A DNA stretch of 19,040 nt from a virus (taxonomy: Duplodnaviria > Heunggongvirae > Uroviricota > Caudoviricetes): the IMG/VR virus record IMGVR_UViG_2526164604_000026, positions 1 through 19,040 of that record; one strand, 5' to 3'. The first letter of the stretch is position 1. Every line of letters starts with the position of its first letter. Shown one piece after another: positions 1-6,000 of this stretch. The position numbers were made by a program.

Positions 1-3000
1 TCAAATAACCAACTTAACCCATTCCTGACCTCGAGTATCGTTATAGCGATCGGTGGTTGCCTGGACTTTATGTCCTAGTAATGTTTTTGTATCGATACCC
101 TGTGCACGGTACAGCCGTTCTGATAGAGAGCGTTGTTCATGAAATGTTGGCGGAGTTTTTCCTGCTGGTGGAATTACCCCAGCCAGATCCCGTGCTTTGG
201 CAAAGTAGTCGCTCAGGTTGTCTTTACTCATCGGCTTCGGTTGTTTCTGGTGCCGACTATGGATTAGATATGGACTTAATATTCTGTCTCGGCACCCATC
301 AATAACTTCTTTTAACGTTATCCCAATGGCATCACAGCGTAGTGTAAGCGGTAACGCCAGACGCATTCCGGTTTTTCCCTGGGTGATATGCAAGTGTTCG
401 TTCCACACATCTGAAAAACGCATGTGGCAAATGTCATCACGGCGCTGACCAGTAACAATCGCAAGAAGCATTGCGTTACGGATAAAGTGTTTTTCAGGCG
501 TTGCATTGTAAATTTTTTGCCAGTCTTCCATGGTGAGCCTGGCTCTGGTTACTTTAGGGATCGGTTTACGGGTAGCCTCCGGAGGATTCCATCCAGGAGG
601 AACTTCCCCTGCATGCTGTGCTTCTTTATAAATATCAACCCATAATCCACGATTTACTCTCGCTGTACTGACCATGTCTTTATCCAGCCACTCATCCAGT
701 ATTAATGCAAAGTCTCTTACTTCCAGTTCTTTCAATGGGTGGTTTCCCAGACGGGAAACCAGGTATGCAGCCATTCGAGTTTTTTCTTTGTGAGTTGTAG
801 CTGCAATATCTCCATTTTTCAGTCGCGTGTCCTGTATTTTCAGATATCGATCAACCCATGCCTTTAATCTGATACCCCGACGTTTTGTTGCTGACGGACT
901 TTCATCAATTTTGCGCATGAAATATTCAGCTTCTGCTGCAGCTATTCGCTGATTGGCTGTGGAAGCGATTTTTTCTGCCTTACCTTTGTCTGTTCCGAGT
1001 CCGTGAAATTTTCCAGTCACAGGATTTTTATACTGGTAGTAAACTCTGCCAGTTCTGCGATCAAACTTTTCGTAAAGACCGGCTACGTCAGTGCTGTTTT
1101 TTCGTGGCCTCGGTGACATGAGTTAAAATCTCCTTCAGTGCATCATCATCGCCAGTATGAATTTCCGGCGCAATTCCCGTTTCACCAGGCCCAACAAATA
1201 CTGCTCGGCGATCTATCAGCCAACGCCCACGAATTTTTTGTGGTCTTGGAACGATGTATCCTAGTTTTCCGTATTTCACCAGGGTAGTGTTTGTTATTGG
1301 GAGACTGAACCGTTTTGGTTTCCACTCGTCGAGCGTTATCAGGTACTGTTCGCTCATGGCTATCACTCCGGAACGCGCCAGTTGCAGAATATCAACGACA
1401 ACTGGCGACGGTTGAACATTAAAAATCAGCCTGACTCGGGATCAGTTTTTGCCAGATAACTGAAACGTATTTTGCCTGGTAACGGGCGTCATCAAGTGCA
1501 TTATGGCGCTCACCTTCGAATGGAATAGCCGTTCTGGCATCGAAGTCTATGGCTTTCCCCAGCTCAACGATTGTGCGTACATCGCGATCGTTGTAGTAAC
1601 GCCACGGGCAGGGGATCCCCTGCCGTTCGTATGAACGGCGCAAAATCGTGTTGTCGAAGTTGGCTCCATTTCCCCAGACCTGAACAAAAAATTCACCGGA
1701 GTTTTCGTCGATAAATTCCCGCAATTGTAACAGTGCATCATCTAACGGGATTTCATCGGTCATAATGGCAGATTGCGCTTCGCGTGATTGCTTAAGCCAC
1801 CATTTAATGGTGTCCCTCGCCGTGTGCTTTCGTGTTGTGTGCCTGCTTTTTACCACGTCAGGCGAGGTGGTCCCCGTTATTCCCCAACAACAAGGATCTT
1901 GTTAATCTGGATATCCCCAACAACAATAAGAGTATTGAATGTGATCGCTGAATTAACGGCAGCAATGACGGCTATTCGTGAAACCGCCCAGATTGCAAAA
2001 CTAATGAACGAGGCAAAAACTCAAGCTGAAGTAAATGCGGCTATTGGTGAACTGAACTCAAAGCTTGCATCTATTCAGCGCGAATGCGTGTCTCTCGTTG
2101 AGCTGGTGGGCACTTATCAAGAAATAAATGCTTCTCTCAAAGCTAAAATTGCAGAATTTGAAAACTTTGAGGCTCAGACGGAAGGTTATATCCTTAGCCA
2201 ACTTGAGTCGGGAACTTTTGTGTACTCGAAGGAGGTAACCGTGAACGGCGGCAGCATAATCATGCATCTTTGTCCAAAATGTTTTGGACAAAAGATAGTA
2301 TCGATACTTCAGCCATTCCCGGTTAGAGAATATGAATTTTTTCATAAAAGCAGGTGCCTGTACTGTGAAAATCAGTTTCTTATGAATAAAAATCCGGATT
2401 ACGTATCACCTCCATCTATTGAAGAGTTGGCCAGAAAACTGAACGGCAATCTGTAGATTTTTACTGTTATGGATATCCAGATTGTTAAAGAGCATGCCGG
2501 ATGCTTGCTTGTGTCCGGCGCGTGTGCACCACTCTCCCCCCGTGGAGGATTCCTTAATTACCAGATTTCATTAGTCAGAGTTTCTTGCTAACCAGCGACG
2601 CGCGCCAGATTCGGTTTTAAACGTTTTGCTTTTGGTATACGTCATCGCGGTGAACGTGCCGTCCTGGTTGGGAAACACGCCGCACACCAGAGATTCGTTG
2701 TTGCCAAGATCAAGAGTATCCATGCTGACCTCATATCCCCTTAACGCCGGGGTAGCGGAACAAAAACCTGCTGCATAGTTAAAGTTGAACCCTGCCGTCA
2801 TGTTCTTACGCCTCGGGCTGGCTACTTAATCCCTGACCACTGCCGGGTAACTCTAGGTATTGCCCTGTATTGTGTGGGACGGGATGGGTTGGTATGGGAA
2901 AACTATAGGAAATGCCTAATTGCTTGTCAATAGGCTGCGCCTAATGATTTGGGTGCGACCTAATAGGTGATGGTTTGTGGGAGAGGTAGTAGGAGTTAAC

Positions 3001-6000
3001 TAACGGGAACTAGGAATTTCCCGTCGGACCATATAAGTTTAAGTTCCTGTCTTGGTGATGTTCTGGCTTTTCCGTTTTGATTCTTGATTTTTCAGATAGT
3101 TAGCTACCTTCATTTCCATTGCGGCAATGTAGGCACGAACGTCATGATCAACCCAACTAGGCTCCGTAGCATTTCCAGATAAGAGGAAAGCCACAATTGC
3201 TCTTTTTTCATCAGAGGCGGCTTGATAAAGGCTGTTTATGTCTAAAAGTTCACTTTTTGTATCTGAAGTGGATGGGGTTGGTATGGGGTATTCGTTAAGC
3301 CCCCAATGCTCTGGACCAACCACATCAGAAAAGAAACGCCATAGTTCTGGAAGTTTGTCTTTACTTATCGAACCTTTCTTAATCCAGTCATGGATTGATG
3401 GTGGTTGGACTTTGAAATGACGTGCGATTTCCGCCTTTGATTTGACGGCTCCTGATGCAATTTTTTTGTTAATGGCCTGCTCTATCGCTCGGCCTAAGTC
3501 TTTACCACTAAGCATTGCTTAATAGTCTCCTATGCGCATCGCATTAGGCAATACCTACTCTCGAAGCGTTAGGCATAGCCTATTGACAATTGCATTAGGC
3601 TAAGCCTAATATTATTGTGTGTTTTTTGGAGTTCATTCGATGAAAAAAGATAACTATTCATTCAAACGAGCTTGTGCTGTTGTCGGTGGGCAATCAGCAA
3701 TGGCTAGGCTTTTAGGTGTATCTCCTCCAAGCGTAAATCAATGGATCAAAGGTGTACGTCAGTTGCCTGCTGAGAGATGTCCTGCGATTGAACGAGCAAC
3801 AAAAGGTGGTGTCCTGTGTGAAGAACTTCGTCCTGATGTTGATTGGACATACTTACGACGCTCGTCATGTTATTCGCAGAATATGTCGATGAAGCAACCA
3901 AATGACGAAAACGATCATACCCGAAGCATCAAGAGGCAAATGATTCATGAAAATCAAACATGAGCACATCCGCATGGCGATGAATGCCTGGGCATATCCT
4001 GATGGTGAGAAAGTTCCTGCAGCTGAAATAGCCCGGACTTATTTCGAACTGGGGATGACGTTCCCGGAACTGTACGACGACAGCCATCCGGAAGCCCTGG
4101 CTCGTAATACCCAGAAAATTTTCCGTTGGCTGGATAAAGACACCCCTGATGCTGTTGAAAAAATGCAGGCTCTGTTACCGGCGATCGAAAAGGCAATGCC
4201 GCCTCTGCTGGTGGCCCGTATGCGCAGTCACAGCTCTGAATATTACCGTGAGATCGTCGAACGGAGGGATCGGCTGGTGAAAGATGTGGATGATTTTGTC
4301 GCAGCGGCGATCGCCTGGGGCACCCTGACTAACAGTGGGGGTCAGCCTGGTAATGCTGTTGTCGTGCATTGACCAACAATATTCATGCCGGATTTCTTCC
4401 GGATGTTCGAGGGTAAAGTTCGGTATCAGATGAGGTGAGTATGGCTAATGCCTGGCTCAGATTGTGGCATGACATGCCAAATGATCCCAAATGGCGAACC
4501 ATTGCCAGGGTCTCAGGACAGCCAATCGCAACAGTGATGGCGGTGTATATCCACCTTCTGGTGAGTGCGTCACGAAATGTCACGAAATGTCACGGCGAGT
4601 CACTACGTGGTCACATTGATGTCACGACGGAAGATTTAGCAAGTGCGCTTGATGTGACGGAAGACGTGATTGATTCAATTTTGCATGCAATGCAGGGGCG
4701 AGTTCTGGATGGCGATCTTATTTCCGGATGGGAAAAACGCCAGGTGATGAAGGAGGATAACGGTAATGTTTCGCAAACCGCAAAATCCCCGGCAGAGCGC
4801 AAGAGAGCGCAGCGGGAGCGGGAAAGACTGCGGGAGCAGAACACTGATTGTCACGATGAGTCACGACGCGTCACGCATATGTCACGACAAGTCACGACAG
4901 ATACAGATACAGATAAAGAATTAAACCCCACACATAACGCGCGCATGCGCGAGAGTGCTCCAGCCAGTGAGTCGAATGGCGCGCCGTTGCAGACAGCAGA
5001 ACCTGAATACCCGGATGGCCTGAGCGAACCGATCGGGAAATTTCCGATGACTGGTGTCTGGCGGCCGTCGCTGGATTTTCGACAGCGGGCTGCATTGTGG
5101 GGTATAGCTCTGCCTGAGCCTGAGTTTACACCTGCTGAGCTTGCCGCATTCCGGGATTACTGGATGGCGGAGGGGAAGGTTTTCACGCAGGTTCAGTGGG
5201 AGCAGAAATTTGCCCGTCACGTGCAGCACGTCAGGGCACAGGTAAAACCAGTCAGCAAGGGGGTAAGCCATGCAGCACCAGGTGGCACCGCATCACGGGC
5301 AGTTCAGGAAATTCGGGCAGCACGTGAACAGTGGGAACGTGAAAACGGATTTATCAGCAACGGAAACGGCCTGGAAGCTGTGGGAACTTATGGGGGAGGT
5401 GTATTCGAACCGCTGGACCCAGAAGAACGGGGCTGCGCCGTCGAAGCTCTGGATTGCTCAGATTGGCGCGATGACTGAACAGCAAATCCGGCAGGTCTGC
5501 CGTCAGTGCATGGACCGCTGCCGGGCGGGTGAAACGTGGCCTCCGGACCTGGCTGAGTTTGTGGCGTTGATTTCGGAGAGCGGGGCAAATCCATTTGGCC
5601 TGACGGTGGATGCCGTGATGGAGGAGTACCGTCGCTGGAGGAATGAATCCTGGCGGTACGACGGGAGTGATAAATACCCGTGGCCACAGCCGGTGCTGTA
5701 CCACATTTGCCTCGAGATGCGTGACAGAGGGATTGAGCGGCAGATGACGGAAGGTGAGTTAAAACGACTTGCAGAACGGCAACTGACGAAATGGGCAAAG
5801 CAAGTTGGTAACGGGATGAGTATTCCCCCGATCCGGAGACAACTCGCATCGCCGAAGTGCCCGCAAGGGCCAACGCCAATTGAATTACTGAAACAGGAAT
5901 ACGAGCGCCGGAAGGCGGCTGGTTTTGTTTGAATCTGAGAAACGATTTTGTCGGAGGAAATTTTAATGGAAACCGTATCTGACGCACTGAAAGCACTGAA

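Follow-up and report, generated by a model that had tools for sequence, protein, structure and literature searches.

What kind of switch is formed by racR, ydaS and ydaT in the 19,040-base stretch of viral DNA studied here (IMG/VR record IMGVR_UViG_2526164604_000026, hereafter the window), and which promoters would its repressor hold? The locus is very probably a lambdoid immunity, i.e., lysis/lysogeny, switch and an allele of racR-ydaS-ydaT of the Escherichia coli K-12 Rac prophage, carried by a prophage beside potC in the O157:H7 lineage. Both characterisation and annotation of this system precede the present analysis, and for K-12 the right operator, the PydaST promoter and the RacR footprints have been published. 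What appears to be mildly new, from the comparison of sequences, is a conserved left operator and its implication for looping by the RacR octamer, the operator not being described in the Rac literature searched.

Genes of the immunity module

The following genes, and one short box at the junction of the last two, make up the module.

3039-3515, minus strand: racR, CI-analogue repressor, 158 aa, 92% identity to K-12 RacR, NCBIfam equivalog
3640-3963, plus strand: ydaS, Cro-like helix-turn-helix regulator, 107 aa, 85% identity to K-12 YdaS
3947-4372, plus strand: ydaT, CII-analogue activator of the CP-933P type, 141 aa, PDB 8BT1 (8.7e-80) and 3C4R (1.9e-75)
3940-3957: YdaT-box, ATGATTCATGAAAATCAA, spanning the ydaT start codon, 1 mismatch to TTGATT-N6-AATCAA

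The three open reading frames (ORFs) lie where the original prediction, made from the sequence alone, had placed them, i.e., 3039-3515, 3640-3963 and 3947-4372. That prediction had also named the arrangement as that of Rac. In protein alignment, the name held for RacR (92%) and YdaS (85%) but not for YdaT, which showed only 31% identity to K-12 Rac YdaT and is not its specific ortholog.

The RacR alignment extended over all 158 aa without gaps, and the protein passed the NCBIfam equivalog NF049929 (246.8 bits against a cut-off of 200, E = 8.8e-74). YdaS, encoded divergently from racR, matched Pfam YdaS_toxin PF15943 (3.8e-30, 103.9 bits against a cut-off of 30), P22_Cro (1e-8, 35.3 against 30.2) and the transcriptional repressor family phrog_35. 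YdaT matched Pfam PF06254, i.e., YdaT_toxin (2.6e-10, 41.1 bits against a cut-off of 21), and the CII-like transcriptional activator family phrog_163 (3e-47). From the crystallised CP-933P YdaT (8BT1), it differed by count at 18 of 140 aligned residues, i.e., approximately 87% identity.

The 1,651 bases around the immunity region matched the chromosomes of E. coli strain 472 and numerous O157:H7 strains with 100% identity. In RefSeq, the matching segment is labelled racR, helix-turn-helix protein, 'toxin YdaT family protein' and DnaT-like protein. The segment of strain 472 is part of a lambdoid prophage adjoining potC, a recognised prophage site in O157:H7 (PMC10925052).

Operators and promoters on both sides of racR

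The K-12 switch has been dissected in several studies. Three GCCTAA/TTAGGC palindromes were described in the racR-ydaS intergenic region in 2017, where RacR gave three complexes in electrophoretic mobility shift assays and enrichment in chromatin immunoprecipitation (PMC5700373). In 2022, the transcription starts of racR and ydaS were mapped, including the TTGACA/TAATAT promoter PydaST. The same study reported DNase I footprints of RacR and its ATTAGGC monomer motif, and named the operators O1-O3, with O3 over the racR ATG and the O1 region protected first (PMC9638921). Four inverted repeats have been reported in the K-12 right operator (PMC11014345, PMC11879457).

The operator motif, ATTAGGCNNNGCCTAAT, was searched over the whole window with up to 3 mismatches, and 200 shuffles were used as the control. 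Six matches were found against 0.70 expected, and none of the 200 shuffles gave six. All six were no more than 100 bases from one end or the other of the repressor gene, two just beyond its 3' end and four at its 5' end. The sites, with one doubtful addition, are as follows, where OL denotes the left operator, and PL and PR the leftward and rightward promoters.

2904-2920: left operator OL2, TATAGGAAATGCCTAAT, 3 mismatches, overlapping the -10 box of PL
2929-2945: left operator OL1, AATAGGCTGCGCCTAAT, 1 mismatch, abutting the -35 box of PL
2948-2964: doubtful third left site, 4 mismatches, weak, with only its ACCTAAT half good
3507-3523: right operator over the racR start codon, ACTAAGCATTGCTTAAT, 3 mismatches, the published O3 and also a C.Csp231I off-target box
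3543-3559: extra right operator, ATTAGGCAATACCTACT, 2 mismatches, in Escherichia-type loci only, overlapping the TTGCCT -35 box of PracR3
3568-3584: right operator, GTTAGGCATAGCCTATT, 2 mismatches, overlapping the -35 box of PR
3594-3610: right operator O1, a perfect ATTAGGCTAAGCCTAAT, 0 mismatches, overlapping the -10 box of PR

The four right sites (3507, 3543, 3568 and 3594) have the form of RacR-type operators, i.e., (T/A)TAGGC-N3-GCCTA(T/A) upstream of racR over PydaST and the start codon. They align one-to-one with the K-12 sites, with the half-sites kept and the 3-base spacers differing (TAA vs GTC, ATA vs ACA), and the sequence at 3507-3523 is identical to the K-12 sequence quoted in PMC9638921. 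By analogy with the K-12 protein (PMC5700373, PMC9638921), RacR of the window would bind the right sites and repress ydaS-ydaT.

Tripartite operators and a mirrored promoter core had been predicted from the sequence. The predicted sites at 3543, 3568 and 3594 and the left site at 2929-2945 are all among the six matches, but the count was too low, i.e., four right and two left sites were found, and 3507-3523 and 2904-2920 had been missed. The three right sites first seen correspond to O1, O2 and the Escherichia-specific extra site, and the missed ATG site is one of the ancient three.

The mirrored core also proved real. It is GCCTATTGACAA, found in exactly two copies, at 2924-2935 (minus strand) and 3578-3589 (plus strand), against 0.09 expected. 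The copies are within a 26-nt inverted repeat with 85% complementarity, and each supplies a perfect -35 box. A promoter scan of 2750-3700 gave just two promoters, one leftward and one rightward. Two further boxes were assigned from their K-12 equivalents.

2902-2930, minus strand: PL-like leftward promoter, TTGACA-17-TATAGT, 11 of 12 matches, predicted start near 2895
3583-3612, plus strand: PR, i.e., the PydaST promoter, TTGACA-18-TAATAT, 10 of 12 matches
3524-3529, minus strand: predicted -10 box of the leaderless racR promoter (PracR3 equivalent), GAGACT vs K-12 GAGAAT
3757-3762, minus strand: predicted -35 box of the YdaT-dependent reverse promoter inside ydaS (PracR4, analogue of lambda PRE), CTGACG vs K-12 TTGACG

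The hexamers and spacing of PR are identical to those of the K-12 promoter mapped by primer extension and mutagenesis, and PracR3 was mapped in K-12 in the same study (PMC9638921). The pattern TTGACG-N15-19-TACGCT for PracR4 had no match in any locus, so this promoter was not confirmed by pattern; by eye, the K-12 PracR4 hexamers are 21 bases apart. The Rfam scan of 2571-4372 detected no RNA family.

Two other elements near these promoters were considered and rejected. A hairpin after the racR stop codon (approximately 3003-3024) was tried as a terminator, and its folding energy was no better than that of shuffled sequence (z = -0.70). A 13-base exact direct repeat, GGGTTGGTATGGG, is found at 2886-2898, i.e., at the predicted PL transcription start, and at 3275-3287 inside racR, where it encodes P-I-P-T. 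As a regulatory element, it was set aside because the repeat is inexact in K-12.

Conservation of the left operator

RacR relatives were drawn from a phage collection, which gave 6 records only, and from a genome collection, which gave divergent relatives, and were scanned for the motif. Operators flank the repressor gene on both sides in the following loci.

L003: Klebsiella phage KpF5, RacR identity 57%
L009: Mixta, RacR identity 64%
L010: Pseudomonadota metagenome-assembled genome (MAG), RacR identity 58%
L011: Proteus, RacR identity 61%
L013 and L015: two Achromobacter genomes, RacR identity 77-78%, N-terminal domain only

KpF5 alone had 5 operator matches against 0.2 expected. The left element is always built as ATTAGGC-n3-GCCTATTGACA-n4-ATTAGGC-n3-xCCTAaTAT, i.e., two operators covering the -35 box and the -10 box of a promoter that fires outward. 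Among eight non-redundant loci, conservation is 95% for the half-sites of this element, 60% for the spacers and 50% for the flanks. The OL1 half-sites are kept in 8 of 8 compared loci while the 3-base spacer varies, the OL2 equivalent has 0-1 mismatch in KpF5, Mixta, Proteus and one Achromobacter locus, and the architecture of PL is kept in 8 divergent loci. In these alignments, a two-site OL over a PR-like PL stands beside RacR-type repressors in five distant relatives of four other named genera. A repressor gene between two outward-firing sets of operator and promoter, the lambda-type plan, is thus found in the window and conserved in its relatives.

The distance from the left element to the repressor stop is 94-96 bp in the window and K-12, 1,395 bp in KpF5 and approximately 1.4-2.3 kb in Achromobacter. 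The element is retained even where 1.4-2.3 kb of other genes intervene before the repressor gene. In KpF5, the intervening segment holds a gene (L003:3149-4303) for a 384-aa protein with HSDR_N, the N-terminal domain of the type I restriction R subunit, and a terminator at 4332-4353. Because the gene has the position of rexAB in lambda, the lysogen may express it as a defence moron.

In E. coli, the 726-base OL-racR-OR block, where OR is the right operator, was found in 1,086 of 5,426 complete genomes, almost always as one copy per genome. Every match covered at least 80% of the query, and most covered all of it; OL, racR and OR travel as one block. On the right side, most relatives outside Escherichia have three sites, over the PR -10 box, the PR -35 box and the repressor ATG, whereas Escherichia-type loci have one more, i.e., 3543-3559 in the window. 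The site at the racR ATG is present in 15 of 16 compared sequences carrying a RacR-type gene, the exception being L016.

The equivalent of the doubtful third left site has 3 mismatches in L004 and L008 and is absent outside Escherichia. Beside it, ACCTAATAGGTGATGG at 2958-2973, between the racR 3' end and OL1, is invariant against K-12 despite diverged surroundings. It holds one good RacR half-site (ACCTAAT) and could serve as a weak third left site or be of another nature. One further locus, L007 (JARKOR010000130.1, a 5,219-bp contig), was binned as 'Candidatus Nanosynbacter' and carries an E. coli Rac-type racR (92%) with all operators. The contig is almost certainly from Escherichia and was put into that MAG by mis-binning.

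Judged by this comparative evidence, which is good, 2904-2945 would be a working operator over PL, with RacR as its likely ligand. On RacR depletion in K-12, ydaG, ydaF, kilR, racC, xisR and intR rose 40- to 100-fold (PMC11014345; bioRxiv 2026.09.06.749655), and RacR was reported to control xisR and intR (PMC11014345). A RacR-bound OL over PL would explain this leftward derepression.

The left sites could instead be a functionless fossil duplicate of PR and OR, or could be used by YdaS and not by RacR. We consider this unlikely, although OL2 is degenerate in the window, PL has few genes downstream, some of them decayed, and RacR binding at the left sites is not reported in the Rac literature searched. 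One of those papers states that the RacR regulon was not characterised in detail (PMC11014345), and a PL/OL pair was tested only for the unrelated PaaR2 repressor of CP-933P (PMC8630535). Against it, the element keeps its sequence and layout in distant hosts, also where 1.4-2.3 kb of inserted genes have displaced it, and leftward Rac genes rise when RacR is depleted in K-12.

YdaS, YdaT and the hybrid junction

The YdaT-box is a (A/T)TGATT-N6-AATCAA element, and one was found at the ydaS/ydaT junction of the window. The sequence at 3940-3957 is letter-for-letter that of the footprinted Rac YdaT-box (PMC11879457). In the window, 12 matches were found in total against 11.9 expected, i.e., the number due to chance, and only the one at 3940-3957 is meaningful.

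Rac DNA homology stops at approximately 3970, in the eighth ydaT codon and just after the YdaT-box. Against K-12, ydaS has a 12-base deletion within 3900-3963, and its stop codon TGA became CGA. The ydaS ORF consequently runs 13 codons past the K-12 stop across the YdaT-box and overlaps ydaT by 17 bases. Because YdaT is of the CP-933P type and not the Rac type, the immunity module is itself a hybrid joined at approximately 3970, at a short conserved linker, with a Rac-type OL-racR-OR-ydaS on one side and a CP-933P-type ydaT and different replication genes on the other.

YdaS and YdaT are very probably Cro-like and CII-like regulators, not toxins. In CP-933P, YdaS was shown to work as a Cro analogue and YdaT as a CII analogue, and no toxicity of that YdaT was seen (PMC8630535). 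In K-12, YdaT binds the YdaT-box, activates the reverse promoter PracR4 inside ydaS and raises racR expression (PMC11879457). The toxin label has been contested since Jobling's letter (PMC5917428) and was disputed in PMC8630535 and PMC11879457. No toxin domain was found in the module proteins beyond the historical Pfam names YdaS_toxin and YdaT_toxin.

The original prediction had described an essential repressor holding back toxic YdaS and YdaT. This framing comes from the 2017 K-12 papers and is disputed, and the YdaT of this locus is of the type found non-toxic in PMC8630535. In a toxin-repressor, i.e., addiction, module, YdaS and/or YdaT would be dedicated toxins and RacR would mainly hold them back. 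This we regard as improbable, even though K-12 racR was deletable only when ydaS-ydaT and the intergenic region were also removed, ectopic YdaS or YdaT was harmful (PMC5700373, PMC5700377), and the Pfam names persist. Both genes stand where cro and cII would, with the replication genes on one side and, on the other, a repressor that has an operator at each end. YdaS has matches among Cro and helix-turn-helix families, and the YdaT type present here was crystallised as a DNA-binding protein (8BT1; PMC9986795) and activates a PRE-like promoter without toxicity (PMC8630535). Furthermore, the YdaT-box is at the expected place, and the label was rejected by Jobling's letter and by later Nucleic Acids Research papers (PMC5917428, PMC11879457).

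Proposed mechanism

That the repeats are chance palindromes or transcription-terminator hairpins, and not protein-binding sites, is hardly credible. Although a terminator scan reports a stem-loop with a T-rich run behind it at 3594-3610 and some of the six matches have 3 mismatches, no shuffle reached six, the sites are exactly on promoter hexamers, half-sites are kept while spacers vary across several genera, and RacR protected the K-12 equivalents from DNase I (PMC9638921).

In the lambdoid switch, RacR dimers would bind the 17-bp ATTAGGC-N3-GCCTAAT operators. The four right sites would cover the -10 and -35 boxes of the strong PR, which would drive ydaS, ydaT and the replication genes, and would also cover the leaderless promoter and start codon of RacR, giving autoregulation. 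The two left sites would cover PL, a near-copy of PR in the opposite direction, from which the DUF1391 gene and, more distally, xis and int would be transcribed. RacR probably binds these left sites and represses PL. With RacR bound, both early operons would be silent and the prophage would stay. A drop in RacR would allow synthesis of the Cro analogue YdaS and the CII analogue YdaT, and YdaT on the YdaT-box would activate the reverse promoter inside ydaS, feeding back onto racR. RacR is an octamer (PMC11014345), and on this basis it may bridge the left and right operators, which are approximately 650 bp apart.

Several points weigh against this account of the locus. The Rac literature searched, K-12 included, mentions no sites or promoter downstream of racR, and OL2 is a poor match in this allele. 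With the early-left arm in decay, there may be little for the switch to control on the left. The -10 boxes of PracR3 (GAGACT, not GAGAAT) and PracR2 are not those of K-12, nor is the -35 box of PracR4 (CTGACG, not TTGACG). Because the boxes of these three promoters differ, racR expression and the YdaT feedback may differ from those of K-12. The Cro analogy for YdaS seems imperfect because K-12 YdaS did not repress racR (PMC9638921). The RacR footprints, the PydaST start, the octamer and activation at the YdaT-box come from K-12 and CP-933P, and would hold for this allele by analogy. Finally, the Pfam scan of RacR of the window gave no domain and thus no Peptidase_S24, the domain of LexA/CI-type autocleavage; the C-terminal Peptidase_S24 of lambda-type repressors, which serves SOS induction, is missing from RacR.

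In Achromobacter sp., L013:3001-4101 encodes a 366-aa repressor whose first 77 residues are 78% identical to RacR and whose C-terminus is Peptidase_S24. It is flanked on both sides by ATTAGGC-N3-GCCTAAT operators (L013 2933-3009 and 5535-5576). By this comparison, E. coli RacR would seem to be a CI-type repressor in which a non-cleavable C-terminal domain has been swapped in.

These observations can be joined in one reading, on which our judgement is evenly balanced. A two-site OL over a PR-like PL would be a conserved part of the switch, and the RacR octamer would bridge OL (two sites) and OR (four sites) as lambda CI does, instead of setting four dimers on the intergenic region. The same DNA-binding domain and operators would serve the S24, SOS-cleavable repressors of Achromobacter, and RacR would be a CI-type repressor in which the cleavable C-terminus was swapped.

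Prophage context and neighbouring genes

The prophage of strain 472 has the gene order int, xis, a truncated 3'-5' exonuclease, an opposite-strand hypothetical gene, DUF1391 and racR. Next come the genes read rightward, which continue through replication, hokD, DUF968, rusA, Q and lysis. The gene next downstream of PL is the following.

2571-2723, minus strand: DUF1391 (ydaF/ydfA-like) gene, Pfam DUF1391 6.6e-30, RefSeq DUF1391

DNA homology to K-12 Rac covers 2590-2711 (ydaF) and 2736-3970, the latter with 86% identity. Left of 2590, nothing matches Rac, and sieB, kilR and recET are absent. The DUF1391 gene is 92% identical to ydfA of Qin vs 89% to ydaF of Rac. K-12 has ydaG between PL and ydaF; the window lacks this gene, and approximately 166 K-12 bases are replaced by approximately 25 at 2711-2736. 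On the other side, the matches are to Qin, i.e., hokD (98%), the DUF968 gene (83% to ydfU), holin (74%) and lysozyme (82%). The prophage is a mosaic, as is usual for lambdoid prophages. The original prediction, which had named a different early-left region and Qin/Stx-phage-like late genes, was right on this point.

The decay of the early-left arm (1-1856) is visible in its genes. The match of the exonuclease ORF (1419-1856) to the Rv2179c-like domain is limited to positions 47-177, and RefSeq flags the exonuclease as N-terminally truncated and the integrase as frameshifted. No recombination, kil or N-like genes were found in this arm. A 171-aa gene at 1941-2456 (plus strand), opposite to the leftward operon, occupies the place of sieB in Rac. 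Its product matched PHROG 1244, a family of unknown function (1e-57), had no Pfam or NCBIfam family and carries two CxxC pairs at the C-terminus. It may be an exclusion or defence gene.

Two RNA families were found to the right of the module. The sok antisense RNA is at 9377-9551 (plus strand; Rfam RF01794, 116.9 bits), and hokD is at 9532-9795, 98% identical to the Qin copy; together they make up a type I toxin-antitoxin pair of the nin region. The sRNA family STnc100 (RF02076, 101.6 bits) is matched at 13174-13340 (plus strand), downstream of the Q antiterminator gene region.

Significance for annotation

The locus is mainly a matter of correct annotation, its K-12 counterpart having been dissected since 2017. 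This O157:H7 prophage should not inherit the 'toxin' names, and its CP-933P-type YdaT least of all. Models of RacR control should include OL and PL, which probably explain the leftward derepression, including that of xis and int, on RacR loss. The junction at the YdaT-box is an example of the reshuffling of lambdoid immunity modules at short conserved linkers.

Comparison with known systems

The closest known system is racR-ydaS-ydaT of K-12 Rac (b1356-b1358), which has the same gene order and orientation. Common to both are the four right inverted repeats, the PydaST hexamers, the YdaT-box and two left sites with PL. The differences are the other YdaT lineage, ydaG in K-12 only and the -10 boxes of the racR promoters. 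In the flanks, the sieB-kilR-recET genes left of the K-12 switch are absent from the window, and ydaU/ydaV on the right are replaced by DnaT-like/P-type replication genes.

The paaR2-ydaS-ydaT locus of CP-933P/Sp12 in O157:H7 shares the logic, i.e., a repressor, a Cro-like YdaS and a CII-like YdaT with a box at the ydaS/ydaT junction. It has a PL/OL pair resembling PR/OR, as does the window (PMC8630535). However, its repressor is PaaR2, followed by the paaA2-parE2 toxin-antitoxin pair, and its operator consensus, GTTTAGTAA, is unlike that of the window. The paaA/parE genes of CP-933P are absent from the window locus. YdaS of CP-933P is 26% identical to Rac YdaS (PMC8630535), whereas YdaS of the window is of the Rac type.

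Compared with cI-cro-cII of lambda, sequence similarity is undetectable, RacR is without the S24 domain, and no N or nut system was identified in the window. The window has four right and two left sites vs three and three in lambda, and the distance between OL and OR is approximately 650 bp vs 2.4 kb. K-12 YdaS, which leaves racR unrepressed (PMC9638921), also differs from lambda. The likeness is in the plan. The repressor and cro-like genes are divergent, the 17-bp operators with two-fold symmetry are 25-26 bp apart over promoter hexamers, and a second operator set lies beyond the repressor gene over a leftward promoter. In both, moreover, the repressor transcript is leaderless, a CII-like protein activates a reverse promoter and the repressor forms octamers (RacR, PMC11014345). 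In KpF5 and Achromobacter, the genes between the repressor and OL mirror rexAB, which lies between cI and OL in lambda.

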